NCBI RefSeq assembly: GCF_000039765.1
Contig: NC_004460.2
Location: 750,001 to 782,000 of the forward strand
Direction: 5' to 3'
DNA from: Vibrio vulnificus CMCP6
GTDB taxonomy: Bacteria; Pseudomonadota; Gammaproteobacteria; Enterobacterales; Vibrionaceae
DNA length: 32,000 nucleotides
The stretch's first letter is position 1. Each line of letters opens with the position of its first letter. This document shows, in pieces, positions 1 through 17,048 of the stretch. The position numbers were made by a program, and so were the translations under genes. The notes below the pieces were generated by a model that saw only the letters and a program-made list of their open reading frames with translations, did no database searches and was not told where the DNA came from.

Positions 1-92
1 AAATTGAGCTGGTTCAATCGCCGATATAATACGAGCGATGCATCATCAACGGGGCCCCCTCCTTTTTAAAACAGATCATTCCCTTGAAGCCT

Positions 93-479
93 ATGGTGGT
101 AGCCAAGGATGTAGCCTCGAATGTCAAACAGCCCTTTCGTACCAGCTATAACAGCACACAATGACCCAAACAGGATCTCAAAAAGACAACAAGTGACTTT
201 TGTACTCCGACACTAGACAGCCACAGCTTGAAAATGTTCTTCAACATACTCAATTTGCACCAAGATCCATTATCTGGTGATGGCGCATATGACACAAGGT
301 ATTGTCACGATGAAACACGATTTAAACGCCCCGTTTGGCTCATCCCACCAGAGAGGGTACTGCGTTTGGGGAAAATGGTTAGCCTGATACACTTAGCGTT
401 CGTCAATAATGTCTTGATTAAGTTAACAGAACTCATTTACACCACGAGATACACTATAATTTCAATCAACTTTAGCTAA
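93..479 (+). pseudogene. IS5-family (IS903-like, DDE_Tnp_1) transposase remnant
   Basis: One frame reads MVVAKDVASNV..., then an in-frame TGA at 162-164, then ...DSHSLKMFFNILNLHQDPLSGDGAYDTRYCHDETRFKRPVWLIPPER. The GDGAYDT...IPPR block is typical of IS5-family transposases. The N-terminal part is absent and the C-terminal part is shortened. The listed 83-aa ORF (228..479) is only its tail. Confidence 0.5.
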
Positions 480-497
480 TGAGATAAGGGAATAAAA

Positions 498-2162: not shown

Positions 2163-2180
2163 TTAACTCTCAATATAATT

Positions 2181-2206
2181 AAGCTCGGCGCAAGTCGAGC
2201 TTTTTC
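2181..2206 (+). terminator. Rho-independent terminator after the amidohydrolase gene
   Basis: aagctcg / cgagctt 7-bp stem (2181-2187 / 2196-2202) followed by a T-run. Confidence 0.6.
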
Positions 2207-2224
2207 ATGAAATGATATAGAGAA

Positions 2225-3205
2225 ATGTCGATGAGTAAAAAGCCAATTCCAGTCACTATCTTAGCCGGATTTTTAGGGGCAGGTAAAACCACCCTGCTCA
2301 ATCATATTCTGACCAATGCCAATGGAATGCGCATGGCCGTTATCGTCAATGACTTTGGTTCGATAAATGTTGATGCTGAACTGGTAAAGTCTGAAAGCGA
2401 CAATATGATCAGCCTAGAAAATGGTTGTGTTTGTTGTAATCTCGCTGAAGGTTTAGTGGTTTCTGTGATGCGTTTATTAGCACTCGAACAACGTCCAGAT
2501 CACATTGTGGTAGAAACCTCTGGAATTTCAGAACCAAAAGAAGTGGCGCTGAATTTTGAAGATCCAGAACTACAACAGCATGCGCCCCTCAATGCGATTA
2601 TCACCACCATTGACGCTAAAAATGTACTAACGCTCGAAAAACAGATGGCAGAATTAGCTGAACAGCAAATTCAAGTCGCTGATATTGTTTTGGTCAATAA
2701 AGTCGACCTAGTAGAGCCAGAAGAGCTAGCAAAAGTTAAACAATGGTGTCAGGTACAAGCGCCATTTGCAAAGCTGGTTGAAATTGAGTTTGGTAAAGTC
2801 GATTTACCTATTTTATTTGAAGTACCAGAGAGGCTTCAGGTTTCATCCCATAACAGAGAACATGGTGGCGAGCACCATCACTGTCATGATGACCATTGTG
2901 ATCACGTTAGCCATCAGTTTGAAACATTCAGTTTTGAAACAGAGCATCCCCTTTCACTGCAAGCCTTGTACCCTCTGTTGCAGCAGTTTTCTATCGATGC
3001 ATATCGCATGAAAGGCATCTTAAACCTTGATGATAAACCCGATCACCGTTGTATTTTCCAATGCACAGGACAACGTGCACAGGTGACGATTGGCGATCCA
3101 TGGCAAGAGGGTGAAAAAAGAGCGACTCGACTTGTTTTCATCGGCCCTAAAGGGGGATTAGATAGGAATGTTATGCGCAAGAAATTGGACGCTCTTGTGA
3201 TCTAA
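2225..3205 (+). CDS. COG0523/CobW-family G3E GTPase (putative metallochaperone)
   Basis: P-loop GFLGAGKTTLLNHIL, CVCCNL (CxCC) metal motif, and a His/Cys-rich stretch HNREHGGEHHHCHDDHCDHVSH before the CobW_C-like tail. Confidence 0.85.
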   Translation: MSMSKKPIPVTILAGFLGAGKTTLLNHILTNANGMRMAVIVNDFGSINVDAELVKSESDNMISLENGCVCCNLAEGLVVSVMRLLALEQRPDHIVVETSGISEPKEVALNFEDPELQQHAPLNAIITTIDAKNVLTLEKQMAELAEQQIQVADIVLVNKVDLVEPEELAKVKQWCQVQAPFAKLVEIEFGKVDLPILFEVPERLQVSSHNREHGGEHHHCHDDHCDHVSHQFETFSFETEHPLSLQALYPLLQQFSIDAYRMKGILNLDDKPDHRCIFQCTGQRAQVTIGDPWQEGEKRATRLVFIGPKGGLDRNVMRKKLDALVI

Positions 3206-3361
3206 CAATAAGTTTATTGGCTCAATAAATGCAGTTAAATGTAACCAAATGTAACCAATGAAAAATGGTGTGATAAAGAGCTATTAGAGCTAAATCGAAG
3301 TTGAATCAAGAAATCGTAATAACTAAGATGATAAATGAAAAAACTAACCATGGAGAGGTTT

Positions 3362-4351
3362 ATGAATCGAAGTATAGCGCTTTGTTTTACTTTACTTATC
3401 TCGTCATTAGTTCCAATTCAGCCAGCAGTTGCTAATGTGCATAATTTTAAAGATGTTTCGCAGAAACTTGAGACAATTTCACAGAGGCTAGTTGGCCGCA
3501 TCGGTGTGGCTGCTCAAGAAATTGGCTCTGGGGAGAGAATAACAGTAAACGGCGATGAAATGTTTGTGATGGCCAGTACCTACAAGGTTGCTATTGCTGT
3601 CGCCTTACTGGAGCGGATTGATAAAGGCGAGCTTAAGCTTTCCGATTTAATTGATGTCCCACAAGAAACCATGGTGACAGGTGACGGTGCTATCGCGGTG
3701 AACTTCGTGCACCCAGGTATAAAGTTATCTATCGCCAATTTAATCGAACCAATGATAACGTTAAGTGACAACACAGCGACAGATATTTGTCTAAAACTTG
3801 CAGGAGGGCCTGAAGCAGTAACTAAAGTGATGCGAAATATTGGTATTACTGATTTACGAGTTGATCGGTATACCAGTGAAATTTTAAGGGACTTCTATGG
3901 TTTACCCGACAAGGCCTATTCATCTGTACTTGCAAAGGCTCTTGCCCAAGACCCATCGCTCGCGTCAAAACAACCACTTAGAAACCTTAAGTTCGAACAA
4001 GAAGATCTACGAGATCAAAGCTCGCCTAATGCCATGTTGGAATTACTTCTGGCAATTGACAGCGGTAAAGTGTTAAGTGAGAAAAGCAGCGAATTTTTAC
4101 TTGATGTCATGTCACGTACACGCACTGGTGCTGGAAGGCTAAAAGGTCTACTACCAAAAGGAACCCTCGTTGCCCACAAGACAGGGACAATTGGCGGTGT
4201 CGCCAATGACGTGGGATTTGTAACGCTACCCGATGGTCGACGTTTTGCGATAGTCGTATATTCTAAGAGCAGCACAACATCGGAAGCTGATCGTGATCTA
4301 GCTATTGCAGAAATTACCCGAACGTTATACGATTTTTATTATTTAAAGTAA
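3362..4351 (+). CDS. Class A beta-lactamase-related serine hydrolase with an enlarged omega-loop region
   Basis: Class A motif order: STYK (SxxK), SDN, then RVDRYTSE (compare RxDRWE), then HKTG (KTG). Start chosen at the ATG preceded by GGAGAGG, giving signal peptide MNRSIALCFTLLISSLVPIQPAVA. About 30 extra residues lie between the E166-like position and the DxRDxxxP block. Confidence 0.75.
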   Translation: MNRSIALCFTLLISSLVPIQPAVANVHNFKDVSQKLETISQRLVGRIGVAAQEIGSGERITVNGDEMFVMASTYKVAIAVALLERIDKGELKLSDLIDVPQETMVTGDGAIAVNFVHPGIKLSIANLIEPMITLSDNTATDICLKLAGGPEAVTKVMRNIGITDLRVDRYTSEILRDFYGLPDKAYSSVLAKALAQDPSLASKQPLRNLKFEQEDLRDQSSPNAMLELLLAIDSGKVLSEKSSEFLLDVMSRTRTGAGRLKGLLPKGTLVAHKTGTIGGVANDVGFVTLPDGRRFAIVVYSKSSTTSEADRDLAIAEITRTLYDFYYLK

Positions 4352-4391
4352 CGAATTAAATTCAACTGTTAGTGCTTAAAAAGGTATAAAT

Positions 4392-5900
4392 ATGGATCAA
4401 GCCATTAAGAAGAAAATGAAATTATTACCTACCGTAATAGTTTCGTCTTTATTGACAATGCAGCCGGCATTGGCACATCAAAATAATAAAATGACACAGG
4501 AAGAAGGCCAAGCAACCTTCAATGCCGTCGTTGCCGATGTCAATAAAATGATCAAAGAAATGCACATACCGGGACTTGCTGTCGGTGTTATTCATGGACC
4601 TAACACCTACAGTGCCGGACTCGGTATCACCAAGGTAGGCACCAACGAGGCCGTTACCCCTGATACACAATTTCAAATTGGCTCTGTGACCAAAACCTTC
4701 CTTGCGACCCTAGCCATGCAGCAATCCGAACAGGGCATTCTGGATTTAAACGCACGTGTCGTCGATATTCTGCCGTGGTGGAGGGTTTCAGATCCCGAGG
4801 CGACATCTAAAGCGCGGGTTGTTGACCTATTCCATCATCGTGCTGGCTGGTATGGCGACCATGGGTTCCTTCGTGTTCCTCCAGGTGGTTCGATATCTGA
4901 GAAAGTAATGCTTCAAGGGGCTTACGCACAGCAGATCTATCCGTTCGATCAAACCTGGATGTACAACAACACCAGTATCACTTTCGCTACACATGTAGTG
5001 TCTCATGTCGGTGGAAAGCCGATCGAGACACTGATCGAAGAGAATCTGTTAACTCCGCTCGGCATGAATTCGTCATCCTTTAACTACGATGCTACCCCTC
5101 CTGCTAAAGATTACGCATGGGGCCATCCGCCGATCTACGGGAAAGGCAGCATAAGTGAACTCAAGCCGTACTACATTCCGTTGATTAGAGAGTCCGCAGC
5201 CTCCGGCGCACTCCGCTCTACGGTGGCCGACATGCTTAAATACGCCCGCTTTCAGCTAGACGGTAAGGATGCCTCCGGTAAGCAGTTGTTGTCTAAAAAA
5301 GCGCTGGATTATGCCCACGCACCTGCGGTCGAGGCTTCGACCGGAGACTTTACCGGACTGACATGGTTCGTCCACGACTACGATGGGACCACAAGCCCTA
5401 GCCATGGGGGGAATTGGCCCGGTACGCGTTCTTTTCTGCAGTTGATCCCGGATCACGACTTTGCCGTAGTGGTTTTGGTTCACAGCGATCGCGGAGCTGA
5501 AGCTTACAAAAAAGTGGCTAACGCAATGGTCAAAGCCTTTACGAAAATCGAATCCAACTCTCCGGTCTCCGTTGGTGCGACTCCGTCTGTGCTCGACCCC
5601 TTCGTCGGTGTGTTTAAGGGTAATTCCCAAAACATTGAGATCCGTAAAGATGGCGACAAATATGTGTTTGTCCAGTTTTCAGCATTGACTAAAGGAGCGG
5701 ATCCTGCCCCTGCCAATGTAGAAAACACGGCCGAGGGTTATTTTATCATCACCGAAGGTCCGAATAAGGGAGCACTTGGTGAATTGCTGAAAGACCCATC
5801 TGGCGAACTCAACTACGTGCGCTTCAACCACAGAATCTTTATTCGCGGTGAAGGTGCGGTTAACGAGTTCGACCTATCTGGATCGGTATTCGATAAGTAG
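4392..5900 (+). CDS. Beta-lactamase-fold (class C / DD-peptidase / D-aminopeptidase-like) serine hydrolase, exported
   Basis: Signal peptide ending PALAHQ. SVTK (SxxK) motif, YNN (YxN) motif, and SHGG in place of KTG. A C-terminal extension of about 120 aa follows. Confidence 0.7.
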   Translation: MDQAIKKKMKLLPTVIVSSLLTMQPALAHQNNKMTQEEGQATFNAVVADVNKMIKEMHIPGLAVGVIHGPNTYSAGLGITKVGTNEAVTPDTQFQIGSVTKTFLATLAMQQSEQGILDLNARVVDILPWWRVSDPEATSKARVVDLFHHRAGWYGDHGFLRVPPGGSISEKVMLQGAYAQQIYPFDQTWMYNNTSITFATHVVSHVGGKPIETLIEENLLTPLGMNSSSFNYDATPPAKDYAWGHPPIYGKGSISELKPYYIPLIRESAASGALRSTVADMLKYARFQLDGKDASGKQLLSKKALDYAHAPAVEASTGDFTGLTWFVHDYDGTTSPSHGGNWPGTRSFLQLIPDHDFAVVVLVHSDRGAEAYKKVANAMVKAFTKIESNSPVSVGATPSVLDPFVGVFKGNSQNIEIRKDGDKYVFVQFSALTKGADPAPANVENTAEGYFIITEGPNKGALGELLKDPSGELNYVRFNHRIFIRGEGAVNEFDLSGSVFDK

Positions 5901-5975
5901 GATGAGCAAAAGATATTAATTCACGCGGATAATGATTTCTGACAGACATCTATTAGCTGCATGAATACCCTTAAG

Positions 5976-6012
5976 CATCAAAACACGCCATAAGGACATG
6001 GGTGTTTTGATG
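5976..6012. other. Perfect 11-bp inverted repeat (stem-loop) downstream of the serine hydrolase gene
   Basis: catcaaaacac (5977-5986 region) ... gtgttttgatg (6002-6012) with a ~15-nt loop. No clear T-run follows, so it is only a weak terminator candidate. Confidence 0.4.
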
Positions 6013-6342
6013 GAAGAAAAACAAATTGCCCTGAGATATCAAAGCATCAGTCAGAAGGAGCAGAGGACATTTAAGGCAATGAGAAAATCATGATGCCTTG
6101 GTTGATGATCGGTCAAAAGCATCTCAACTAAGGCTGATTTTTATTAGCTGAAAGTTCGCCATCATGATTGGGCTAGACAAGTAACCATTGGCCCTTGATG
6201 AAAAACTTGCAGTCCGTGGGAATAATGGCGTTGATGACTTCAGCCTGAAGAGGGCTAGCTACGAAAAATTCTTGCTGGAACCGAACGTTCTATCAGCACG
6301 AGTAAAAATACGGACCAACCCATATTTAAGAAATGATTATAT

Positions 6343-7857
6343 TTAAAGCATACCTTCAATAGGTAAAACACCAGAGAGCCAAGCTCCAATGCTTCTCCAG
6401 ATACTAGATTCTGGCTCGCTGTCATAAACTTTACCATTCCCTAAATCTGTCCAATGTAAATTTCCCTCTCGAATCTCAACGTAATATGCGTCTTTAGGCA
6501 ACGCACTGTTTAATTGAACAGTGGCCTTTTTAACATATTCAGGATGTGTAATATGAACTGCCATTTCAGTATTGATATAGGCTGAGCGAGGATCCCAGTT
6601 CATCGATCCAACAATAAAATCAGCATCATCGATGACGATGACTTTGGCATGGAGGCTTGCTCGCTGACTCCCGATCAAACTCCATTGGCGTTTGATTTCT
6701 GCACTGGCTTTAATTTCCCAAAGGGTAATGCCACTTTCCAGCAATTCTTCTCGATATTTGGCATACCAGCCATGAACCGCGAAAACATCATTTGAAGCCA
6801 AGCTGTTAGTGACAATCGTAACTTTCACTCCGCTCTCCGCCAACCTTTTCAGTCCTAGGGTACCTGCTTCAGTGGGCACAAAATAAGGAGAAATGATCAA
6901 GATGGAGTCAGTTACATTGTTTAGTCTTTCGGCGAGTTGTTCCGCTACCTGACTATCACGGGTTTCTACCTTGTCTGGTAAGTCATACCAGAGTACTGCT
7001 TCACCCCAGTAAAGCTTGAGCGTACCGTGCTTTAGGTGCTCAAATAGCTCTAGTTGGCTGATGTCATATTCACCGTCTCTAAAAGGCGCTTCTAATGCGT
7101 TCACATCAACAAGGTCTTCCAAGGCATATTGCGTCTCGTAATCAGAGAGCGAAACAAGCGCACTGACAGATTGTGTTTGGTCGCTGTTCCAGTACAAATC
7201 AAACTGAGTTGCTGTTTCAACAACCGCAGGACCAAAAAGCAGCACGTCAAAATCGCCAAATTCAACTTGGGTGGAAAATGAAAAATATTCGTTGCCGATG
7301 TTCCGACCACCCACAATAGCTGCCACACCATCGGCAGTCATCGATTTATTGTGCATACGATGATTGAGTCGAGAAAAATCGGTGAGGAAAGATAAACCCC
7401 GGAAAAACCTGTTGGTGTATGGATTGAACAGACGTATTTCGATGTTCGGATGGTCATTCAACAGCGCCATGACCTGGTCGTCCCGACGCTGCATATCGTC
7501 AAGCAAAAGTCTCACTTTGACGCCGCGTTGCGCTGCTTCATAGAGCCGCCATGTGATGATTTTGCTTGTTTCATCATCTCCAAACAGGTAGTACTGCAAA
7601 TCCAACGAGTGCTGAGCACTTGTAATCAAGGCGATTCGGGCGAGTAGGGCGTCATCGCCATTATTGAGAGAGTGAAAGCCGGTTAAATTGTCTTTCACCG
7701 TTTCAGGGCGAAGCTGCTCATAATATTTGGCCAGAGTGCTACCTTCCTGATAGCCAGAGTGGTAGCTAAGCTTTTTTTCAGTCACTAATGGGTTGGAAGC
7801 TGAACACGCAAGCAATCCAAAACAGCTAGCAACAACTAGAACACGCATCCATTTCAA
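6343..7857 (-). CDS. Phospholipase D-family lipoprotein (two HKD motifs; ClsC/cardiolipin-synthase-like)
   Basis: HKD motifs: HNKSMTADGVAAIVGGRNIGNEY and HAKVIVIDDADFIVGSMNWDPRS. Lipobox LLACS. The TTG start at 7857 lies 7 nt after AAGGAG. Confidence 0.8.
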   Translation of the reverse strand: MKWMRVLVVASCFGLLACSASNPLVTEKKLSYHSGYQEGSTLAKYYEQLRPETVKDNLTGFHSLNNGDDALLARIALITSAQHSLDLQYYLFGDDETSKIITWRLYEAAQRGVKVRLLLDDMQRRDDQVMALLNDHPNIEIRLFNPYTNRFFRGLSFLTDFSRLNHRMHNKSMTADGVAAIVGGRNIGNEYFSFSTQVEFGDFDVLLFGPAVVETATQFDLYWNSDQTQSVSALVSLSDYETQYALEDLVDVNALEAPFRDGEYDISQLELFEHLKHGTLKLYWGEAVLWYDLPDKVETRDSQVAEQLAERLNNVTDSILIISPYFVPTEAGTLGLKRLAESGVKVTIVTNSLASNDVFAVHGWYAKYREELLESGITLWEIKASAEIKRQWSLIGSQRASLHAKVIVIDDADFIVGSMNWDPRSAYINTEMAVHITHPEYVKKATVQLNSALPKDAYYVEIREGNLHWTDLGNGKVYDSEPESSIWRSIGAWLSGVLPIEGML

Positions 7858-7908
7858 AAAAAACTCCTTAAGAACGAGTTAGTCAAAGTTGAACCCAAGT
7901 AATGACGA

Positions 7909-8928
7909 TTAATCTACTTTATCAACCACATAGTGAGAAGTAGTCTGAGTAAGGTTAAGTATCAAGTAACCAATCAAAATGGCTGTTGCGATTGATATTA
8001 ATCGCGTCAAGTGAGAGGAGAATGGGTCATCTCCCTGATAATTTAAAACCTGACTGACAAGAACAAAAAAGTTGGTAAACAGGAGTTGATAGATACTCAT
8101 ACGGCATCGCTGGCGCATAGCGAAGCAAGCCAATTGCAAGCCTAAAAACAACGTAGCGCCGAACAGTGCCCATGTAGGCCAGCCAACAATCGAAAGCAGA
8201 ACCATTGGGAGCGTGAAGAGTATACCGATAGCGGTGGTCGTGATACGATTCCGACTAAATAAGCGGTGATCATCAGAAAATGGCACCCTAATCATACTAC
8301 TGATGGTAATACCAATTAATATGGATTGGGAGCTTCCTGAAGCGATAAGCGCAACCATCACTAAGGCCATTGCAATACTTTTGAAAAAGATAAGCCCCAG
8401 GTGGGAGTTTGCTCCTTTGGGGTCCTCTTCATCAGTCTTTATTTCTTTTTCATCGCCTGGGAACAGCAAAAAGCTAAAGTAAGTGACGATCAACGCGATG
8501 ACACTCGCTTCAAGCATCAGTGCTGGCAAGCCAAAACTTGATATACCGAATTGCAGATTGATGACACTCATCATAATCACAACCAATAAGACAAATGTGG
8601 CCAAAATGTCTTTGGGATTTTCGTGACTTCGGTAAAAACTCCAGAATAAAAGCGCCCAGCAATAAAGCCCGTAGCCCGTTGGAGAATCGATGAGCTGTTC
8701 CCCTAACAATACAACACCAAGGCTGACAAATACCATAACCGCAAGAAGCTTAATCAGCATATCTACGGGAGGTTTTGATGGCATGATCGTTAAAAAAATC
8801 ACCACAAAAATTGGGGCAAGTATGGGCAAAATCGCTCCATGTGCTGAGAGATAAAAGAGCAGTATTGATGGTGCTAAAACCAAACGAAGCACCGGATTCG
8901 CGGCGCTACGAAACATAAGTCCAAACAC
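7909..8928 (-). CDS. Polytopic inner-membrane protein, FUSC/DUF2955-like (putative efflux partner of the upstream HlyD-family gene)
   Basis: 339 aa, very hydrophobic with many predicted TM segments. Its start (GTG 8928 or ATG 8916) overlaps the reconstructed stop of the HlyD-family gene at 8906-8908. The family call is from memory of the HlyD plus DUF2955 gene pairing. Confidence 0.55.
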   Translation of the reverse strand: MFGLMFRSAANPVLRLVLAPSILLFYLSAHGAILPILAPIFVVIFLTIMPSKPPVDMLIKLLAVMVFVSLGVVLLGEQLIDSPTGYGLYCWALLFWSFYRSHENPKDILATFVLLVVIMMSVINLQFGISSFGLPALMLEASVIALIVTYFSFLLFPGDEKEIKTDEEDPKGANSHLGLIFFKSIAMALVMVALIASGSSQSILIGITISSMIRVPFSDDHRLFSRNRITTTAIGILFTLPMVLLSIVGWPTWALFGATLFLGLQLACFAMRQRCRMSIYQLLFTNFFVLVSQVLNYQGDDPFSSHLTRLISIATAILIGYLILNLTQTTSHYVVDKVD

Positions 8929-9969
8929 TCAGTACATGCATCCAAATGCTTGCTAGCCACTCACCAAATTTGCTTTTCTCAGTATAGACTGCAACGGTAG
9001 CTTGAGAACCAAATCGGACGTTTGAAAGTCTCTCTACGTCATCAAAGACAATATTAACAGGGTAACGCTGGGCACTGATTGCCTTGTTATCTGCGACTAA
9101 AAAACCTGTAGTGGCATCTACATTATTACTGCCTCCTGTCCCCCAGCCAATGCTGTCAATTTTTCCGGAGAGACACGACCTGGCAGCGCATCCAATACAA
9201 TATCGACACGTTGTCCTTCTCGAATATGTTCAAGAGAGTTTTCTCGTAACTGGGCCGAGATCCATACGCCACGAGGGTCAATGAATGTTAATAATGGCGT
9301 GCCAGCATTAGCGCGTTGTCCGTTCGTGAGTTGGACATTAGTCACAACTCCCTTTGAAGGCGCAGTAACATTGGTTTTTTGAAGGTCAAGCTGAGCTTTT
9401 TCAAGTTTGGCCATCGCCGCGAGAATTTGCGGGTTGTTATTACCAGCAGGCCCCAAGTTTTGTTTTGCTTGCACTAATGCAGCTTCCGCGGCCTCCAGCC
9501 CAGCTTGCGCGCGAGTTTTTGATTCTAGTGCATTGTCCAGATCTGCCTTACTTAAGACCCCCCGCTTAGCCAGTGTTTCCGTTCTGGCTGCTTGCTCACG
9601 AGCATTATTTCTCGCAGCCAGAGCTTCTACAACTCTAGCCTGTGCAACCTCTACGGCCGCAGTATTTGCGCCAATACTTTGACCGACTAACTCCAACTCT
9701 GCTTGAGCCGCTCTAAGAGCAATGTCGTAGTTTCTTGGATCGATTCGGAACAAAAGGTCGCCGGCATTCACGATCTGATTGTCACTGACTGAAACGTCAA
9801 TGATATTGCCTGTTACCTCAGGTGCGATCTGAACAAGATAAGAATGGATCCGTGCACTGCTGGTAATTGGTGTAACCCTGTCGGCCCAAAGACTATAAAG
9901 CCAAATTACTAAAATCGTGGTAATAATGTAGATACTTAGTTTTCTCGATGATGATTGCGTGTCAGACAT
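8906..9969 (-). pseudogene. HlyD/EmrA-AaeA-type membrane fusion protein gene interrupted by a 1-nt frameshift
   Basis: From ATG 9969 the frame reads MSDTQSSSRKLSIYIITTILVIW...IAPEVTGNIIDVSV...LDALPGRV, then stops at 9118. Shifting frame near 9166-9175 gives SGKIDSIGWGTGGSNNVDATTGFLVADNKAISAQRYPVNIVFDD...WTYVS*, ending at 8906. Total length is 1064 nt, one short of a multiple of three. Confidence 0.8.
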
Positions 9970-10089
9970 CAGTAATTCTCTATTTTGCGTTACGCTAATT
10001 TGCGAAAGTATACCATTTAATTGAACATTTAATACATGCCAAGCAAGCGGCTTTGATGTGATGGATGCACCTCCCTTCTTGCATTGTTG

Positions 10090-10200
10090 TACCACACGAC
10101 AGGTACAGCCATTAAGAGCCGAAGTAACAGCCATGTCGATTAAAGTTGTTTTCCCAACCCCACCTTTTGGATTTGCGGCACTAATAGCGTTAGTTTTCAT
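10090..10200 (-). pseudogene. 5' fragment of a ParA/MinD-type P-loop ATPase gene
   Basis: ATG at 10200 gives MKTNAISAANPKGGVGKTTLIDMAVTSALNG (deviant Walker A, KGGVGKTT). Homology stops after about 37 codons. The frame then runs by chance into the HlyD-family ORF, producing the listed 363-aa ORF. Confidence 0.6.
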
Positions 10201-10215
10201 AACAAACACAAAGAT

Positions 10216-10233
10216 GTATTACATATATAATAC
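10216..10233. promoter_or_regulatory. Near-perfect palindrome GTATTA-N6-TAATAC just upstream of the ParA-like start (candidate operator)
   Basis: gtattacatatataatac: 16 of 18 positions are self-complementary, in an AT-rich promoter-like context 15 nt upstream of the ATG. Confidence 0.4.
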
Positions 10234-10538
10234 ACAAATAAGTTATAGGAAGTTCCTCTCAAGGGTCACTTGCACATCTGGCTCTATTCCCAGTCCAGCA
10301 GAAAACCCTATGTAGGTTCTCAAGCTAAAATTTTAAGAGCGATAGAAATATGGCTCTTAAACATCAATAGAATCAGCACCAACAAAGCTGGATCACTTTT
10401 GAGTCAACTTCTAGAGCCTTCTCTCACCGCTTCTATTGCAAAGTTATGCTCACCAATTACGGGCCTAATTTCTTAAAGCTACGTAACGAGGTCAGTTATC
10501 TCTATGCTGAGTTCCCTTTAGACAGTGTCGCTTCAGGG

Positions 10539-10691
10539 CTATTGAGTCGCATCGCTCTGATACTCCGCAAGCACCAAGCTCATTAAATAAATACCGATTT
10601 CAGCACGACCTGTAGCTTTTGTTTCCATGGCAACAGAATCAATAATAAAACTCATCACTTCAACTAGGTGGTTGTCTTGTAAAGATGACAT
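10539..10691 (-). CDS. Small hypothetical protein (50 aa), below the ORF-track cutoff
   Basis: ATG preceded by GGAGAGG at good spacing. Translation: MSSLQDNHLVEVMSFIIDSVAMETKATGRAEIGIYLMSLVLAEYQSDATQ*. It is co-directional with and downstream of rep. Confidence 0.4.
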   Translation of the reverse strand: MSSLQDNHLVEVMSFIIDSVAMETKATGRAEIGIYLMSLVLAEYQSDATQ

Positions 10692-10790
10692 ATACCTCTC
10701 CAATCAACGTTTGAATTTACCATTAGATACCGTTTTATAACTACGTAGTTGCGCAGAACATCACAACCTTTTGGTTGCAACTGCTTTTGT

Positions 10791-11969
10791 TCAAGGAAAT
10801 GACAGCTTAGACAAGGTGCTTTTTTGCTTCATCACATAACCCACAAGGTACGGCTCAACAGGAGCAGATATCTGATGTACAGCATCATTAACATGACAAA
10901 TCGGCCCATTTCGTTCGCTCATAGCAAGTGCAGACCTAACTCGTTCAAGTAAATAAACATAACGACTGACTGTCTGACGACACAGGTGAGCCATACGAGC
11001 CACGCTACCAATCGTAAGTGGTTGGTTGCTCCGTAGTAGACGTTGACAGGCATGGACAATACGACGAGCTGTATTCGTTCGGCGTATCCGGTGCGTTCTC
11101 TTGGCTGCTCTTCGCTGCCTTTCATGCAAACTTAAGCCTCTATCCAGTTTCATCACGCCGCGCTGACAGTCTGCTCTGGCAAAATACTTATCCCAAGTCC
11201 AACGAGATACGCTTTTCACTAGTGCCTGAACCTCACTACTTGGCAACGGTGGACTTTCCGGCATAGCGCTAACATTTTTGTAGCGTGCAAACCCCTCGAT
11301 CCGTGCTTTAAAATCGATATAACATCCCCGCTCTCGTGCCTTGCCAACAATGCTGTAAGCGTACTGGCGGGTGTGTTCAAACAATGTGCAGTTTCGGGAG
11401 TAGGAAGTATCATGTGCTTTTCGTTGCCACAAACGATCTGTCTCTAGTTCAAGGAAATCTGCAAGCTCACCAAGCTCAAAAACACTTCGGTGGAGTTCGG
11501 TCGTCAGCCAGTCAGCATGAAAAGGCGTTTTGGCCACTGGACCACAGTAGCTCAAATCAGCCTCTAGCCTTAATGCAAGCGCTCGATAAATGGCTTGGTA
11601 ATAAGCGATAGGTTTGGCGTTTGCGTTATCACTGGTGCAAACAGGCACAATGGCATAAAAAAGATGGGCTTTGTTGCTGGTGCGATCGCGCACAATCAAG
11701 TTCGGCGGTGGCAACCCTTCATCTTGCCAGATGTAGGGATTTGGCAAGACACGGTGTTCATGATCAATATCGAACACCATCCAAGCCTTCATATCTCTTC
11801 GATTAACTTGCATGTATGGCCACTTTACAGCGTAATCACGTGGCCTAACGAGCATAGCGGTTTTATTATCACTACACCTCGAAAAATAAGGCGCTTCCTC
11901 AATCAAGCGTGTTTTCAACGAATGCAATTGGGCTGTGATATGAGCCTGGTCAGAACGAATCACCGTCAT
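10791..11969 (-). CDS. Plasmid/phage-type replication initiation protein (Replicase-family N-terminus, PriCT_1-like motif, C-terminal HTH)
   Basis: KAWMVFDIDHE and NKAHLFYAI blocks. YSRNCTLFEHTRQYAYSIV resembles the primase C-terminal PriCT_1 motif. A basic stretch and the HTH-like LTIGSVARMAHLCRQTVSRYV lie near the C-terminus. I prefer ATG 11969 to the TTG at 12020. Confidence 0.6.
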   Translation of the reverse strand: MTVIRSDQAHITAQLHSLKTRLIEEAPYFSRCSDNKTAMLVRPRDYAVKWPYMQVNRRDMKAWMVFDIDHEHRVLPNPYIWQDEGLPPPNLIVRDRTSNKAHLFYAIVPVCTSDNANAKPIAYYQAIYRALALRLEADLSYCGPVAKTPFHADWLTTELHRSVFELGELADFLELETDRLWQRKAHDTSYSRNCTLFEHTRQYAYSIVGKARERGCYIDFKARIEGFARYKNVSAMPESPPLPSSEVQALVKSVSRWTWDKYFARADCQRGVMKLDRGLSLHERQRRAAKRTHRIRRTNTARRIVHACQRLLRSNQPLTIGSVARMAHLCRQTVSRYVYLLERVRSALAMSERNGPICHVNDAVHQISAPVEPYLVGYVMKQKSTLSKLSFP

Positions 11970-11976
11970 AATAAAT

Positions 11977-12198
11977 TCAACACAGTTTGCTTCTGAGTGC
12001 GTCAGAGAGTGCAAGGCCAAGCACTACCGTCATCGTGGTGAATATCATCATGCTGGCTGAATTGTGTTTAATTAGATCTCTCGATCGAACATTGATAGCA
12101 ATGCCCTCTTCAGCGTCACTTTCTAAGACTAAATTGAGAGAATGGGTACATTCTTGAGTTGCCTTATGGTTTAAGGCCTCAAATCCTTGATGGTTCAC
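11977..12198 (-). CDS. Hypothetical small protein with a hydrophobic C-terminal segment (uncertain)
   Basis: 73-aa ORF with a GTG start and weak SD. The tail MMIFTTMTVVLGLAL is TM-like. It sits between orf87 and rep in the same operon direction. Confidence 0.3.
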   Translation of the reverse strand: MNHQGFEALNHKATQECTHSLNLVLESDAEEGIAINVRSRDLIKHNSASMMIFTTMTVVLGLALSDALRSKLC

Positions 12199-12270
12199 AG
12201 GGTTTACCTTGTCTAGCCCCCTCCCAAGTTAGGAGGAGCCATTGGCACAAATCAGGCTAATGTATAAAAC

Positions 12271-12534
12271 CTAAAGCCAACGTTCTCTGATCTTGTCTAT
12301 TCGCTTTTCGACACCAAGTAAACGTATTCGCAGACGCACTTGCGCCAACAAATGAAGTGTGTGGTGTAACTGGCGAATTAAGCTCTGCTGCTCTTGTAAT
12401 AACGGGGAAAGTTGACGCCGATAGAGCTCATGTCGAATTTGCCTGATATTTATAAGTCCTCTGCGTATGTCGTTCTCTGTCAACAAGCGAGAATACTTAT
12501 CTGGGCATGGTTTATGGTAATGAACTACGGACAT
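12271..12534 (-). CDS. Hypothetical basic coiled-coil protein (87 aa)
   Basis: ATG preceded by GGAGGAG. It begins 23 nt after the CII-like stop. The sequence is heptad-like and Arg/Leu/Gln rich. No family recognised. Confidence 0.55.
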   Translation of the reverse strand: MSVVHYHKPCPDKYSRLLTENDIRRGLINIRQIRHELYRRQLSPLLQEQQSLIRQLHHTLHLLAQVRLRIRLLGVEKRIDKIRERWL

Positions 12535-12557
12535 CGCTCCTCCAAATTAATACACGC

Positions 12558-13073
12558 TTACCCTGCCCTGACGACAGACTCAATCTCCATACATGGAGAG
12601 ACATCTTGATTGAGTTTTTCAAGGCTATTGATGATCAAAACATGGTTACTGATACTGGCCTGTGCCGTCTGAACAATCTTATGTTTCATCGTTCGACTCA
12701 ACTCTTGCTTACCAACACAATCAAGCGCCATACGAGACAACTCACCGGAATAAATGGCGTTATCCACTGCCCGTCGCAACAAAGTTGCTTCAGTTTCGTC
12801 AGGGGGAATATGAGCTGTTACTACACCCAGTCCTATAAGTAACACGTTCACAATGGAGTGATTCCCACTTATTTTTGAGATCGTAATGAGCTCTGTACAG
12901 CTGAGAACATGAGGTTGCTCGGGGTTGAGTTTATTGCGAAGCATCGTCGCATTCATTCCAAGACGTTCTGCTAGCTGAGCCATGTTTTCCGTTCTCGCAA
13001 AAGCACAACACGCTTCGTTAAATGCCTTTTGTTTAGAACCAAGAAAGTCGCACCTTAAGTCAATGTCGTCCAT
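12558..13073 (-). CDS. Phage regulatory protein CII (CP76 / phage 186 CII-like)
   Basis: From ATG 13073: MDDIDLRCDFLGSKQKAFNEACCAFARTENMAQLAERLGMNATMLRNKLNPEQPHVLSCTELITISK... This gives about 171 aa with an HTH, in the same size and position as CII in 186-like phages. Confidence 0.65.
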   Translation of the reverse strand: MDDIDLRCDFLGSKQKAFNEACCAFARTENMAQLAERLGMNATMLRNKLNPEQPHVLSCTELITISKISGNHSIVNVLLIGLGVVTAHIPPDETEATLLRRAVDNAIYSGELSRMALDCVGKQELSRTMKHKIVQTAQASISNHVLIINSLEKLNQDVSPCMEIESVVRAG

Positions 13074-13185
13074 AGCGAATACTCGATTGAAGAAAAATGG
13101 TATGAAAACGAAACCCAACCAAGAATGTGAGCCACAATGGGCAATGTCCCTTGGTTGGAATTAAGGAACATAAGCGCATGATGAC

Positions 13186-13398
13186 CTATCCCATTCGTTG
13201 CAACGTTTCTCTTGTTGCCATTTCAAGTAACTCGACCATATTGATTAAAGGAGTTTCTTTAGCTTTAGCTTTCTCTTTAATGGGTAAGCGACCGTCTGAG
13301 ACCCAATCCATGATGGTGCGTTTGGGCATGCCAGAGAACTGAGAATACTGGTCGTAAGTCATATACGGGGTATTTAGGACTACTTGATATGAAAGCAT
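13186..13398 (-). CDS. Apl/Cox-like small HTH regulator (possible excisionase/switch protein)
   Basis: 70 aa with SD AAGGA. YDQYSQFSGMPKRTIMDWVSDGRLPI parallels the P2 Cox segment as I recall it (from memory, unchecked): YQEFAKLIGKSTGAVRRMIDKGKLPV. It is divergent from the CI-like gene. Confidence 0.6.
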   Translation of the reverse strand: MLSYQVVLNTPYMTYDQYSQFSGMPKRTIMDWVSDGRLPIKEKAKAKETPLINMVELLEMATRETLQRMG

Positions 13399-13490
13399 AG
13401 TGGTATCCTTGTAAGTGATTGAATGTTAATAAACGATCTAGCGAGCCGCAGCTCATAACTAGTTCGTATGCGAGAGATTATTGATCGTAT

Positions 13491-14099
13491 ATGCGAGAAA
13501 AACAAGCTCAGCTATCCGCTTTTGAATATCAAGGTGGAAAGCATGTCACAGAAAGATTGTGTAAGGCACTGGATGCAAAGAACTTAAGTGAGCTTTCGAG
13601 CATCCTAAATATACCTACTTCAACAATGTCTACATGGCATAAGCGCGAGCTATGTCCTTTCGAAGTAGTGATTAGAGCTCATATGTATACAGGCGTGTCG
13701 GTACGTTGGTTGACGCTTGGTGAAGGTGAACCCTTCCCAAATCGAACGGAGCGAACTGAATCTAACCTCCTTTTCGAAATCGACTCGCACAAAGTTCTCA
13801 ATGGCGAGCTAGTTTCCCATGAAGTTCTCATTTTCGACAAAACCATATTAGATGACGCTTCAGTCACTAACATTATGGCAATTCGCGATGGCGAAAAGAC
13901 TTACATCATTGATAAAGAAACACATCAAGCTGTAAGCGGAACTTATCTAGTCGATATGGACGGCCTTCTATCGCTGAACGAGATCCAGCGTTTACCAGGT
14001 AAGAAACTGGCGATTAGCTTTAATGGATCAACTCTTACAGTTGAAGAGGATGAGGTTAAGGTTGTTGGTAGGGTTGTGTTGGTGGTTGATAAAGTATGA
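13491..14099 (+). CDS. Phage 186/P2-type CI repressor (Phage_CI_repr HTH plus C-terminal domain)
   Basis: ERLCKALDAKNLSELSSILNIPTSTMSTWHKRE...VSVRWLTLGEGEPF matches the 186 CI N-terminal signature as I recall it (...LQWLLTGEGE.F). 202 aa. Confidence 0.7.
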   Translation: MREKQAQLSAFEYQGGKHVTERLCKALDAKNLSELSSILNIPTSTMSTWHKRELCPFEVVIRAHMYTGVSVRWLTLGEGEPFPNRTERTESNLLFEIDSHKVLNGELVSHEVLIFDKTILDDASVTNIMAIRDGEKTYIIDKETHQAVSGTYLVDMDGLLSLNEIQRLPGKKLAISFNGSTLTVEEDEVKVVGRVVLVVDKV

Positions 14100-14136
14100 A
14101 AAGCAATATGAAATCAAGTTAAAGAGTGTCTACTGA

Positions 14137-14293
14137 TTTGGTGGCTATTCAGATCCTGTAGTGAAAGCCTGGATTCTACTTCGAGCTAGCGGTATATTTG
14201 AATGTCGCAATAAGCCTGCGCCTTTTTTGACAGCCTCAGGTAGACCATACCTGGAAGTCCACCATTTGATTCGGTTAATCGATGATGGTCCTG
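14137..14293 (+). pseudogene. C-terminal fragment of a McrA-like HNH endonuclease
   Basis: The frame opens at 14137 and reads ...DPVVKAWILLRASGIFECRNKPAPFLTASGRPYLEVHHLIRLIDDGP. Compare the McrA-type pattern C..C..APF...G.PYLEVHHI.PLS.GG. There is no N-terminal region or start codon, and the distal part of the motif is lost. Confidence 0.5.
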
Positions 14294-14295
14294 TT

Positions 14296-14644
14296 AGCAC
14301 GCCGTTGTCACCGTCAGATCCTTTGTTTTTATCTGCAACTGACAAGTCTGGGCATGGTGACCCACCAATGAAACCCGTAAGTGCTTCTTTCTTAGCTTTT
14401 GTTACCAGTTCAGTTAAATGTTTGGCCTCTTCACCAGTTACGAGATCATCTATTGAACCATGGTAGTAACCATATTTTGGCTCAGGAATGCCTATTTGTT
14501 CTCTGGAGTACTTATATGCGTCTAGAAAAGGCTATGGAATTCGTTGATAAAACGCACATCAAAACCTGAGCGTTCGAAGCCTAAATCTAAAAATCCACTA
14601 CCAGAGAAAAATAAGAAAATTATTGGTCGTTGTTGAGCTGACAA
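14296..14644 (-). pseudogene. N-terminal fragment of a DNA (cytosine-5) methyltransferase, frameshifted and 3'-truncated
   Basis: Motif I is IIFLFFSGSGFLDLGFERSGF, with a stop at 14522-14524. Shifting frame gives DAYKYSREQ...GFIGGSPCPDLSVADKNKGSDGDNGVLT (motif IV, PC). Motifs VI-X are absent. Confidence 0.65.
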
Positions 14645-14850
14645 ATAAGAGCCTTTCTTAATTGTTAATTCTATCGTTAAACAGTATCCAACCCGCCATA
14701 ATACATTATAGCTACGGCAGCTAAAACAGGACTCTACTTTAGATAGACGGTTTGAGGGATGGAGGGATTGTTTTAAAGTCGCGACATAAAACATTGCAGT
14801 ACATACAAACACATTTAAACTGTATTTATATACAGAAAAACGAGCTAACT

Positions 14851-15882
14851 ATGTCTATCCGCAACTTAAAAGATGGGTCTAAAAAACCCTGGTTCTGCGA
14901 GTGTTACCTAAATGGTCGCCAGGGCAAAAGAGTTAGAAAGCGATTCGCGACTAAAGGCGAAGCCGCCGCTTTTGAGCGCTTTGTGACTAGAGAGATCGAA
15001 GACAAGCCCTGGGAAGGCGATAAACCCGATCACCGTAGGCTTACTCAACTGATAGAGATTTGGTTTACACGCTACGGAGTCACACTTGCTAATGGTGCAG
15101 TGGTGTACAGCAAGCTACTCAAGATGTCAGATGCGATGGGTAATCCAGTCGCTCCCCTTCTCAATGCCAAGTTGTATTCGGAATTTCGTAGTCAGCGTAT
15201 GCATGGTCAGATTAGTTTTGTCGACCACAGGTGGCAAAAAGGTGCACCGAGTATCGCGACACTCAACTCTGAACTCGCCAGATTTAAGGCGGTATTCAGC
15301 AAACTTAAGGAACTGGGTGAATGGAAACTGGCCAATCCTGTAGAAGAAGTAAAACCATTTAAAGATCACGAACGCAGCATGGCTTTCTTACACGAAGGAC
15401 AGATATCCCTGTTGCTTGAGCTAGTTGCACAACACAATCGTAAGGATATGCTCAAGATTGTGAAACTTTGCCTGGCCACCGGAGCACGTTGGAATGAGGC
15501 AGCGCAACTTAACGGCTCTCAGCTCACTAAATTCAAAGTCACTTATACCAACACAAAAACAAAGAAGAATCGCTCTGTACCCATCGCTGAAGAGCTATAT
15601 AACGAGATCCATAAGCCAACTACTGGCAAGTTGTTTGAAGAGTGCTATACGCCTTTCTGCTACATTCTGAAGAATAAACTTGGCATTACCCTCCCATCAG
15701 GTCAAGCTTCGCACGTTCTGCGCCATTCATTCGCCAGCCACTTTATGATGAATGGTGGCAACATTCTTGTCCTGAGAGACATCCTTGGCCATGCCGATAT
15801 AAGCATGACAATGCGTTATGCCCACTTCGCACCTGATCACTTGTCTGAGGCGATCACTCGCAACCCACTCGCGAATTTATAG
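14851..15882 (+). CDS. Tyrosine recombinase, P2/186-type phage integrase
   Basis: MSIRNLKDGSKKPWFCECYLNGRQGKRVRKRFATKGEAAAFE is a P2-Int-like N-terminus. The catalytic region has LATGARWNEA, HVLRHSFASH and LGHADISMTMRYAH. Start moved to ATG 14851. Confidence 0.9.
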   Translation: MSIRNLKDGSKKPWFCECYLNGRQGKRVRKRFATKGEAAAFERFVTREIEDKPWEGDKPDHRRLTQLIEIWFTRYGVTLANGAVVYSKLLKMSDAMGNPVAPLLNAKLYSEFRSQRMHGQISFVDHRWQKGAPSIATLNSELARFKAVFSKLKELGEWKLANPVEEVKPFKDHERSMAFLHEGQISLLLELVAQHNRKDMLKIVKLCLATGARWNEAAQLNGSQLTKFKVTYTNTKTKKNRSVPIAEELYNEIHKPTTGKLFEECYTPFCYILKNKLGITLPSGQASHVLRHSFASHFMMNGGNILVLRDILGHADISMTMRYAHFAPDHLSEAITRNPLANL

Positions 15883-15910
15883 TCATCGCCATAAAATTTT
15901 TTCTGCGGCT

Positions 15911-15931
15911 GTCGCCACTTTGTCGCCACTT
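15911..15931. repeat. Tandem 11-bp-period direct repeat gtcgccactt x2, next to the int 3' end
   Basis: gtcgccactt at 15911-15920 and again at 15922-15931, about 30 nt after the int stop. Candidate integrase arm-type sites. Confidence 0.45.
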
Positions 15932-15943
15932 GCCAAATTTAGG

Positions 15944-15973
15944 ACAAAAAAAGAGCCGCTAAAAGCGGCTCTT
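15944..15973 (-). terminator. Rho-independent terminator of guaC
   Basis: aagagccgc / gcggctctt 9-bp stem (15951-15959 / 15965-15973). On the minus strand it is followed by a T7 run (15946-15952). Confidence 0.8.
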
Positions 15974-16001
15974 AATAATTCGTTATTTCCGAAGTGTTGT
16001 C

Positions 16002-17048
16002 TTACTTCTCTTTACCAAACACATTGTTCTCTTGCTCAAGAACGCGGATGAATGTGGTGCGTTTTGTTAGCTCGCGAAGCTCCGCTGCGCCTACGTAGGT
16101 ACAGGTTGAGCGTACGCCGCCAAGGATGTCTTGAATGGTGCCGTGAACACTGCCACGGTAAGGCAACAGTACGGTTTTTCCTTCTGCAGCGCGATAGCCT
16201 GCAACACCACCAGAATGCTTGTCCATCGCGCTCTTTGAAGACATGCCGTAGAATTTCATGTAACTTTCGCCGTCTTTTAGCACGATTTCACCGCCTGATT
16301 CTTCGTGGCCAGCGAGCATGCCGCCTAACATCACGAAATCTGCACCGCCGCCGAAGGCTTTCGCTACATCACCTGCACACGCACAACCACCGTCACCGAT
16401 AATACGGCCACCAAGACCGTGCGCGGCATCGGCACACTCAATAATGGCAGAAAGCTGAGGGTAACCAACGCCCGTTTTCACGCGAGTGGTACATACTGAA
16501 CCTGGGCCGATACCCACTTTAACGATGTCTGCGCCAGCAAGGATCAGCTCTTCTACCATATCGCCAGTGACGACGTTACCGGCTGAGATCACTTTGTCTG
16601 GGAACGCGGCGCGAACTTGCTGAACGTATTGCACTAGGTGCTCTGAATAGCCGTTGGCGATATCGATACAGATGAAAATCAGCTCATCGGAAAGCGCCAT
16701 GACATCTTTGGTTTTTTGGAAGTCAGCTTCCGATGTGCCGGTTGAAACCATTACTTTGTTCAAGGTTTCGCTGTCAGCGTCTTTGACGAAATCGGCCCAA
16801 TCTTGAACGGTGTAGTGTTTGTGGATGGCGGTCATTACACCGTGCTGAGAAAGTGCTTTCGCCATTTCGAAGCTGCCCACAGAGTCCATATTGGCAGCAA
16901 TGACAGGCACGCCAGACCATTGACGACCACTATGTTTGAATGTAAACTCGCGGGTTAAATTTACTTGAGAACGGCTTTTCAGGGTAGAACGTTTCGGGCG
17001 AAACAGGACATCTTTAAAACCTAACTTAAGTTCTTGTTCGATACGCAT
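16002..17048 (-). CDS. guaC: GMP reductase
   Basis: From ATG 17048 (SD AAGGA): [29 protein letters not shown]... 348 aa, with IMPDH/GMPR-fold motifs ([11 protein letters not shown]). The listed ORF has a 19-codon upstream extension. Confidence 0.95.

Follow-up and report, generated by a model that had tools for sequence, protein, structure and literature searches.

Downstream of guaC on chromosome II of Vibrio vulnificus CMCP6 lies a compact block of about 6 kb, in which a phage-type lysogeny switch stands next to a plasmid-type replication gene (rep). This arrangement raises the question of whether the block is a self-contained mobile element or a part of something larger. We studied it within a window of 32,000 nt (the whole stretch of DNA analysed, NC_004460.2, positions 750,001 to 782,000 of the forward strand), which is 99.98% identical to CP037932.1 across 12 kb. 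An initial annotation, made without database searches, had read the block as an intact switch and replication module, and had proposed a helper-dependent satellite or an integrative plasmid-like element rather than simple prophage debris. Our analysis indicates that positions 10126-15950 of the window are very probably a stub, the decayed integrase-proximal end of a large chimeric integrative element whose insertion site is the guaC terminator. As a stub, the block is unremarkable. The front part of its parent is a recombination and immunity module of the P2/186 type and the back part is a replicon of the ColE2/pPT23A type with partition genes; the parent as a whole appears to have been a large integrative, conjugative-plasmid-like element. 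The second half of the initial proposal was thus close to the mark for the ancestor, which was integrative, plasmid-like and not an ordinary P2 prophage, but the 6-kb block, with its single attachment site (att), is not self-contained.

The element is bordered by guaC (16002-17048, minus strand). Reading leftwards from guaC, the order is terminator, arm-type repeats, int, spacer and cI, followed on the opposite strand by apl/cox, cII, orf87, orf73, rep, orf50 and the parA stub (Table 1). All genes of the initial annotation were recovered at their positions, with strong profile matches for int, cI, apl, cII and Rep, and its placement of the element between the guaC terminator and a truncated ParA-like gene, here cut at 25 codons, was confirmed. 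The assignment of the switch to the P2/186/K139 type also held, since the same gene order is found in the P2-like Vibrio phage L9-1 (OR762784), with 84% identity for Apl, 57% for CII and 51% for CI; the two integrases are 53% identical. The Apl of the window is in addition 100% identical to that of a V. parahaemolyticus relative (L022; loci compared are given here by their L numbers). As had been claimed, virion genes are lacking: tblastn with 18 structural and lysis proteins of L9-1 gave zero homologues in the 32-kb window, and the genes called in sister loci spanning most of it are housekeeping or metabolic. No relaxase, oriT or type IV secretion system and no tRNA target was found in the window, and an Rfam E-value scan of 9900-16200 returned merely two sub-threshold matches, both over the guaC terminator.

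The integrase-proximal junction was placed at the guaC terminator hairpin, because homology between the window and element-free V. vulnificus strains, which do exist, starts at 15918-15985 and runs rightwards only. Next to int, a pattern search detected one cluster of Int arm-type repeats in the window, compared with none in 100 shuffles, and no other cluster in the window; the same motif adjoins int in all guaC-linked relatives and occurs at both ends of phage L9-1. A second guaC 3' end, hairpin or set of arm repeats was absent throughout the 32-kb window, and no second att site was found in sister-strain loci reaching ~24 kb past int. Searches for flanking direct repeats with a repeat finder (seed 10) and with blastn-short (word 7, guaC 3' end and terminator) gave chance-level 10-13-mers only. 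Within the DNA available, no attR was present in the window or in any relative. Other islands at guaC (L016, L017 and L021) do carry a far-end copy of the guaC 3' end or hairpin, tandem elements in L071 are separated by a second guaC 3' copy, and in phage L9-1 each of the two ends bears att and arm repeats.

The opposite edge of the block is a break within a gene. Window 10145-13454 is 90.7% identical to V. parahaemolyticus L022, in which Rep is followed by a 66-aa open reading frame (orf66) and an intact parA of 259 aa, and homology to L022 stops ~75 nt into parA. When the window was aligned to L022, L025, L042, L049 and L050 (ParA of 259 aa in each case), parA homology ended at ~10127-10135. 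The junction is identical in all 16 V. vulnificus loci that retain the region. From the parA start, the reading frame continues into a HlyD-family efflux gene, and gene calling in sister strains yields the fusion as a protein of 431 aa; the efflux gene is flanking DNA outside the element and marks the break junction. Further losses were seen inside the block. According to the alignment, orf50 is a shortened form of orf66 with an 11-bp deletion, and the 750-bp spacer between cI and int is occupied by two gene fragments, and is the deletion scar of a cargo slot of which two stumps remain. One stump matches PADLOC MTase_II (2e-12, covering profile positions 3-38 only) and the other is similar to the C-terminal end of a methyl-directed restriction enzyme of type IV (PADLOC mREase_IV 1e-8, positions 195-238 of 277). 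The impression of an intact unit was therefore not upheld, as parA is truncated, orf50 carries a deletion and the second att site is absent. Because the far att site is gone, the stub is unable to excise precisely; the cut and fused parA, the reduced cargo slot and the shortened orf66 belong to the same list of defects.

Comparison with relatives revealed a family with the order int, variable defence-cargo slot, cI, apl, cII, orf87, orf73, rep, orf66, parA and orf99. The order from int to orf66, with orf73 variable, adjoins guaC in V. parahaemolyticus, V. atypicus, Vibrio sp. EA2 and several metagenomes, and was further found in V. amylolyticus, V. neptunius, V. ouci, Vibrio sp. F13 and SWAT-3; the V. 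profundi member lies beside a NUDIX gene and has a different int. Identity of Rep among the relatives is 56-95%. Between V. vulnificus and V. parahaemolyticus the element is 91% identical at the nucleotide level and guaC just 79%, and the element has therefore moved between species. The cargo slots of relatives contain SIR2-STAND, Thoeris-like, AAA_15, DUF4365 and methylase genes. Downstream of rep, parA-orf99 is present in most members, often together with DUF2913, toxin-antitoxin genes and RadC, and no homologue of a P2 structural protein was found within 10 kb downstream of rep in any relative. In the V. parahaemolyticus assembly GCA_032335315.1, which was extended via its exact DndB protein, the element reaches at least 29 kb from guaC with its end unreached: parA-orf99 is followed by a KAP NTPase, three small genes, DndB, RadC, DUF2913 and DUF4942, and then by a 614-aa ParB_N protein, DUF7659 and neighbouring genes. 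Over at least 18 kb, this stretch is collinear with conjugative Vibrio plasmids in their leading region, e.g., V. harveyi p1 (MOBF/MPF_F), on which TraI and SLT are also found, and the element is also collinear with chromosomal loci where SLT and TraI come next. With a full-length relative of at least 29 kb, and with a far edge that is a break in parA in every V. vulnificus copy examined, the 6-kb block cannot be taken for a complete unit. When the far end of the parent was sought via DUF2913 homologues, the walk led to another, though related, chromosomal island (TraI-SLT-DUF2913-RadC). Two relatives carry additional phage genes: at L030 8294-9709 (V. ouci) rep comes directly after a gpA truncated to 431 of 626 aa and a fragment of cII, and at L046 5965-8509 (V. 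neptunius) it is preceded by a complete early region of the P2-like type together with a second cII. Both look like recombinants of a P2-like prophage and the Rep element, joined at shared sites.

The Rep protein consists of an AEP-type Replicase domain, a PriCT_1 domain and a helical C-terminus, and scored 127.6 bits against PF03090 (cut-off 26) and 39.5 bits against PriCT_1 (cut-off 21.1). It matched 388 plasmid records at E<1e-30, with ~50% amino acid identity to annotated plasmid Reps, among them those of Marinobacter, Vibrio campbellii, Salmonella, Pseudomonas and Xanthomonas plasmids, and had no homologue in 50,697 phage genomes; its earlier classification as a plasmid or primase type and not a gpA type is therefore well founded. 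The clade of Reps with at least 56% identity was found in Vibrio chromosomal or short unplaced contigs only, and in no PLSDB plasmid. No sequence match was found in the PDB and none in NCBIfam. The predicted structure served as minor support only, as the AlphaFold model was mediocre (pLDDT 66) and the best PDB fold in Foldseek, the PrimPol AEP domain, was a weak match; the model weakly suggests that the helical C-terminus may be helix-turn-helix (HTH)-like, which is as far as the previously assigned C-terminal HTH can be followed. The 99-bp spacer between rep and orf50, a candidate site of the replication origin, shows good conservation among the five closest aligned relatives and divergence in L026, and orf50 is homologous to the small open reading frame after gpA in phage L9-1 (h14; tblastn 2e-6). 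The small gene orf87, without a match in Pfam, PHROG or NCBIfam, precedes rep in relatives from more than 8 Vibrio species, and orf73 has no Pfam or PHROG family match. A near-perfect palindrome just upstream of parA, a candidate par operator or centromere, is conserved in the five aligned relatives that retain parA and absent from L026. In the intergenic region between cI and apl, a consensus scan gave no strong sigma-70 promoter match. Two side observations concern the surroundings of rep: L026 (V. atypicus) has an insertion of ~250 bp right after the Rep stop codon (~11180-11430), seen in none of the other relatives aligned, and the metagenome contig L024 contains an inverted partial copy of the Rep C-terminus (6650-6919; 90 aa, 54% identity) located 2.7 kb downstream of a complete Rep.

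Table 1. Features of the guaC-proximal stub and its junctions, listed leftwards from guaC (positions in the window)
Feature	Position	Strand	Evidence or remark
guaC terminator hairpin, AAGAGCCGC-TTTTA-GCGGCTCTT	15951-15973	-	Terminator scan; attachment-site core, int-proximal junction
Two tandem Int arm-type repeats, GTCGCCACTT x2	15911-15931	+	Pattern search
Tyrosine integrase, 343 aa, intact	14851-15882	+	Int_N 7e-27, Phage_integrase 5e-18, phrog_1 6e-61
Cytosine DNA methyltransferase, N-terminal fragment, ~93 aa	14292-14570	-	tblastn, 60% identity to L9-1 Dcm (373 aa)
Fragment (~53 aa) of the gene after cI in L9-1	14152-14310	+	79% identity to L9-1 'h6' (228 aa)
CI-type repressor, 202 aa	13491-14099	+	Phage_CI_repr 1e-17, Phage_CI_C 7e-18
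Switch intergenic region between cI and apl	13399-13490		By position
Apl/Cox-like excisionase-repressor, 70 aa	13186-13398	-	phrog_575 'Cox-like excisionase and repressor' 5e-24
CII/CP76 regulator, 171 aa	12558-13073	-	Phage_CP76 2e-36, phrog_101
orf87, small gene specific to the element family	12271-12534	-	Conserved
orf73, small gene just upstream of rep	11977-12198	-	Conserved at 56-79% in close relatives
Plasmid-type replication initiator (Rep), 392 aa	10791-11969	-	PF03090 Replicase 4e-37, PriCT_1 (PF08708) 4e-10
rep-orf50 spacer, candidate replication origin	10692-10790		By analogy with ColE2-type replicons
orf50	10539-10691	-	phrog_5581 1.5e-7
Near-perfect 20-bp palindrome just upstream of parA	10215-10234		Sequence
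parA stub, first 25 codons including the Walker A motif, 3-nt deletion	10126-10200	-	tblastn, 25 of 259 residues
HlyD-family membrane-fusion gene, in frame from the parA start	9118-10125	-	Pfam HlyD_D23, HlyD_3

Within V. vulnificus, the segment from cI to rep is 99.2-100% identical across strains, as against 95.4-98% for the adjacent guaC, and 10 polymorphic sites were counted in rep versus 72 in guaC. In rep, 8 of these are synonymous and 2 non-synonymous, a count that is biased since ten loci were selected because their Rep protein is identical; in cI, 2 synonymous and 4 non-synonymous sites were counted, a diversity too low for measuring selection. The int gene is frameshifted in 8 of 14 distinct V. 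vulnificus assemblies, and the frameshifted alleles are ~3% diverged, so that recombination break-points seem to be placed between int and cI. Based on this diversity, the island appears to be young in V. vulnificus and to have passed from lineage to lineage through homologous recombination rather than through mobility of its own. The block from HlyD to AI-2E on the left of the stub always accompanies the stub in this species. Two assemblies, L007 and L008, show an extra deletion of 13.3 kb from inside orf50 to an insertion sequence (IS) fragment. The loss maps to position 11312 of both (window 10658) and corresponds to 7200-20537 of L033; it ends at the IS fragment (HTH_Tnp_1) beside a SIR2_2 gene, and the whole HlyD-to-AI-2E block is gone.

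The steps by which the parent would have worked were deduced from the known roles of its protein families. CI would repress the early operon; once derepressed, Apl and Int would excise the element, and Rep would start plasmid-like replication at an origin adjoining its own gene. ParA and orf99 would segregate the episome, and transfer would proceed through conjugation and not in virions. In the window copy, the lack of attR rules out excision, partition is lost and the operon is probably held off by CI. Most likely its own CI keeps the stub silent, and this CI may still render the host immune to related P2-like vibriophages. A bolder proposal, which we consider possible and advance tentatively, is that the parent represents an undescribed guaC-targeting family, widespread in Vibrio, in which a conjugative-plasmid backbone (ColE2-type Rep, ParA, a leading region and probably a MOBF relaxase) was placed under a P2/186-type cI-Apl-CII switch. 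The switch of the family members is close to that of co-circulating Peduoviridae, and in some members nearly identical with it. Our literature search, limited to open-access papers, found no description of a P2-switch/plasmid hybrid family.

Several observations weigh against the reading of the block as a stub of such a parent. No full-length relative with both att sites was recovered, and the far end, the relaxase and the transfer genes, which would belong to the parent judging from collinearity, were not seen in one contig with the rest. The loci L026, L031, L064-66 and L071 also end soon after rep, at differing points, and a 'complete' form may be rare. Every open reading frame from cI to rep is intact in 18 of 18 V. 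vulnificus loci, which fits a recent arrival but equally continued selection for some function. The HlyD-to-AI-2E block may be either chromosome or former cargo. Finally, an inverted 11-nt copy of half of the guaC-terminator hairpin (10109-10121 versus 15966-15976) is positioned exactly at the parA junction and extends to 13 nt (CCATTAAGAGCCG) when set against the far att of L017 and L021; with a BLAST E of 1.5 it is possibly due to chance, although its position is striking. It was not accepted as an attR.

If the block were instead a minimal satellite or mini-replicon, the 6-kb unit would excise and replicate, and would be packaged by a K139/P2-like helper or kept like a small plasmid. In favour of this reading, int, cI, apl, cII and rep are all intact in the window, and the spacer that might hold an origin is conserved; the proximity of its switch proteins to those of co-circulating Peduoviridae is what a helper-responsive element would show, and compact int-cI versions recur in other samples (L042, L050, L067/68). 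Those compact relatives, however, carry on into an intact parA-orf99 and further, the second att site is absent, and the left edge lies within parA at a single ancestral junction common to the copies. In most sister strains int is broken. The 5-13-kb contigs with close Rep homologues in Logan, ENA and JGI, considered as possible small circular forms, proved to be linear pieces of the same chromosomal arrangement, and no contig of ~6 kb with circular ends was found. The orf66-parA spacer, considered as a cos site, has no similarity to the cos-bearing gpA-portal interval of L9-1 or to the rest of that phage, and all markers of P4 and of the PICMI satellites failed. The sequence evidence thus argues strongly against a satellite, which we consider extremely improbable. 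Somewhat different evidence bears on the possibility that the block descends from an ordinary P2-like (Peduoviridae) prophage in which gpA was swapped once for a plasmid Rep, with subsequent loss of the late genes by deletion. Phage L9-1 is matched in the order of the switch, in the cargo slot with its dcm fragment and in orf50, int remnants of the same family lie at guaC in many strains, and the hybrids L030 and L046 show that recombination between P2-like prophages and the Rep module does occur. The cII-orf87-rep-orf66-parA join is, however, kept in more than 10 Vibrio species, with co-diverging sequences (Rep 56-95%), and so is not a one-off. Virion genes are absent within 10 kb of rep in all these relatives, Rep is missing from the phage genomes, and the longest relative leads into conjugative-plasmid genes, not into portal or terminase. 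We therefore judge this origin very unlikely. The outcome that would have made the block a plain remnant, i.e., one arm of a larger P2-like prophage ending at a unique junction, was found only in part: the junction is unique and one arm is present, but the larger element is not a P2-like phage.

The persistence of uninterrupted cI, apl, cII and rep in all the V. vulnificus loci while int decays may also be explained by domestication. Here the module would be under selection, either because CI provides superinfection immunity against homoimmune P2-like vibriophages or because of self-addiction, in which the loss of CI would unleash lethal in situ replication driven by Rep. The excess of synonymous over non-synonymous changes in rep, subject to the bias in the choice of loci, points in this direction, as does the 90% identity that CI in relatives can show to a phage CI (L022 versus L9-1). 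A young island accounts for the intactness equally well, the low diversity prevents selection from being measured, and the CI of the window is just 51% identical to that of L9-1, with no phage having a closer CI identified in the phage collection. Taken jointly, the two variants appear very unlikely, and we retain the reading of the block as the decayed end of a larger integrative element.

In V. cholerae, guaC has been described as a hotspot of short defence islands (PMC12082036), and in V. vulnificus the site was likewise found to be a hotspot (L012-L021). Depending on the strain, it holds dcm with GmrSD and AAA_15, a DNA methylase with HATPase and GIY-YIG genes, WYL-associated genes, a KAP NTPase, or int and CI_C fragments only; near-empty sites still keep an int 3' remnant with 78% identity. 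In L071 (1-2700), the Rep element stands in tandem behind a Rha/DUF4238 element, and an 85-aa guaC 3' fragment plus hairpin lies between the latter and the int of the former. Downstream of guaC in the V. vulnificus loci L015 and L019 (11192-21047), a Tn7-like transposon (TnsA, TniB) carries Csy2, Csy3 and Csy4, which suggests a CRISPR-associated transposon (type I-F) targeting guaC. A group II intron reverse transcriptase (RVT_1 and GIIM) is located near the guaC region of one V. vulnificus strain (L017 5861-7144), and another lies downstream of the element in V. amylolyticus (L028 19292-20923). On the other side of the stub, window 1-10090 contains an amidohydrolase, CobW, two beta-lactamase-fold genes, PLD, DUF2955 and HlyD. 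This 13.5-kb left block seems accessory and could be either former cargo of the element or a separate island; its exact PLD protein is recorded in 63 blocks, adjoining the stub in every contig read, and the exact GuaC protein in 1437 blocks. Compared with all 16 sister loci in which the HlyD gene is present, the 99.98%-identical CP037932 among them, the window differs by a 1-nt indel at 9118-9300, because of which the HlyD reading frame stops at 9118 and not at ~8905; the indel is either a frameshift or a sequencing error.

These results are mainly corrective. What appeared to be a tidy 'mini-satellite' is a broken stub, which is not to be counted as a new satellite family and is unsuited for inferring helper-phage interactions in V. 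vulnificus. They also document module sharing, in which a phage lysogeny switch and a plasmid replicon with partition genes are joined in a stable element family across species. The members are found at the known guaC hotspot, and their defence systems (SIR2-STAND, Thoeris-like, KAP NTPase and methylases) lie in the slot used by P2-like phages. Should a full-length form prove active, it would be a further example of a plasmid-like or conjugative element regulated in the manner of a phage, and would account for how some short defence islets at guaC arose. If the tentatively proposed family is real, the element would respond to phage signals, confer immunity and perhaps share the inducing cues of the phages; it would spread like a plasmid with defence cargo in a phage-type hotspot, and its stubs would persist as immunity or defence islets at guaC.

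Among known systems, the initial annotation had likened the block in size, though not in gene content, to the minimalist satellites of marine vibrios. The PICMI of Vibrionaceae (PMC10803314) are indeed similar in their size of ~6 kb, their Vibrio hosts, the combination of an integrase with a replication gene and the lack of capsid genes, but the resemblance ended with these general traits, as every defining PICMI feature failed. PICMI are inserted downstream of fis and flanked by short direct repeats, whereas the window element is located at guaC with no flanking repeat. They encode AlpA (PF05930/PF12728), which has no match above threshold in the window (Apl scored 17.5 bits against HTH_17, PF12728, under the cut-off of 27), and a primase with DUF3987/DUF5906, in contrast to the PF03090 and PF08708 domains only of the window Rep; the cI/cII switch is a further difference. 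P4-like satellites are alike in concept alone, sharing an integrase, a primase-type replication protein of their own, a possible plasmid state, an association with P2-like phages and a defence hotspot. The window lacks the alpha primase-helicase, psu/sid/delta, epsilon, AlpA and cos, with no Pfam or PHROG homology, and its immunity relies on the CI protein, while that of P4 relies on RNA. In comparison with integrative conjugative or mobilizable elements, the window has int and apl but not the two att sites that permit excision.

The P2/186/K139 Peduoviridae represented by L9-1 share more with the window. L9-1 has the order int, dcm, four cargo genes, cI, apl, cII, three small genes, gpA, a small open reading frame and portal, and the int-cargo slot-cI-apl/cox-cII order and orientation are common to both, as are the Int arm repeats (GTCGCCAYTT), defence cargo between int and cI and a small open reading frame homologous to that after gpA. 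The window differs in having no tblastn match to L9-1 gpA, in whose place a PF03090 and PriCT_1 gene is followed by parA, in lacking portal, terminase, capsid, tail and lysis genes, and in its single att (15911-15973), where L9-1 has both. The ColE2/pPT23A replicons, which replicate with a plasmid-specific primase Rep, have the same two-domain Rep, and the relatives of the window resemble them in a ParA partition gene after rep; unlike these plasmids, the window Rep sits in a phage-type early operon under CI and is chromosomally integrated.

By analogy, the element would work most like the replicative integrative elements such as SGI1. SGI1-type elements are regulated by AcaCD/SgaCD and target trmE or dusA, whereas the window element has a P2/186-type cI-apl-cII switch and targets the guaC terminator; no oriT or relaxase was linked to it in one contig here, and the window copy is a truncated stub. 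The Vibrio island GIVchO27-1 has been reported to encode a protein with PF03090 and PriCT-1 (PMC8409611). In common with SGI1, which has rep-oriV, and with GIVchO27-1, the element is an integrase-borne island with its own plasmid-type replicon, and its relatives share with SGI1-type elements the stability genes (ParA and toxin-antitoxin) and the leading-region genes of conjugative plasmids.

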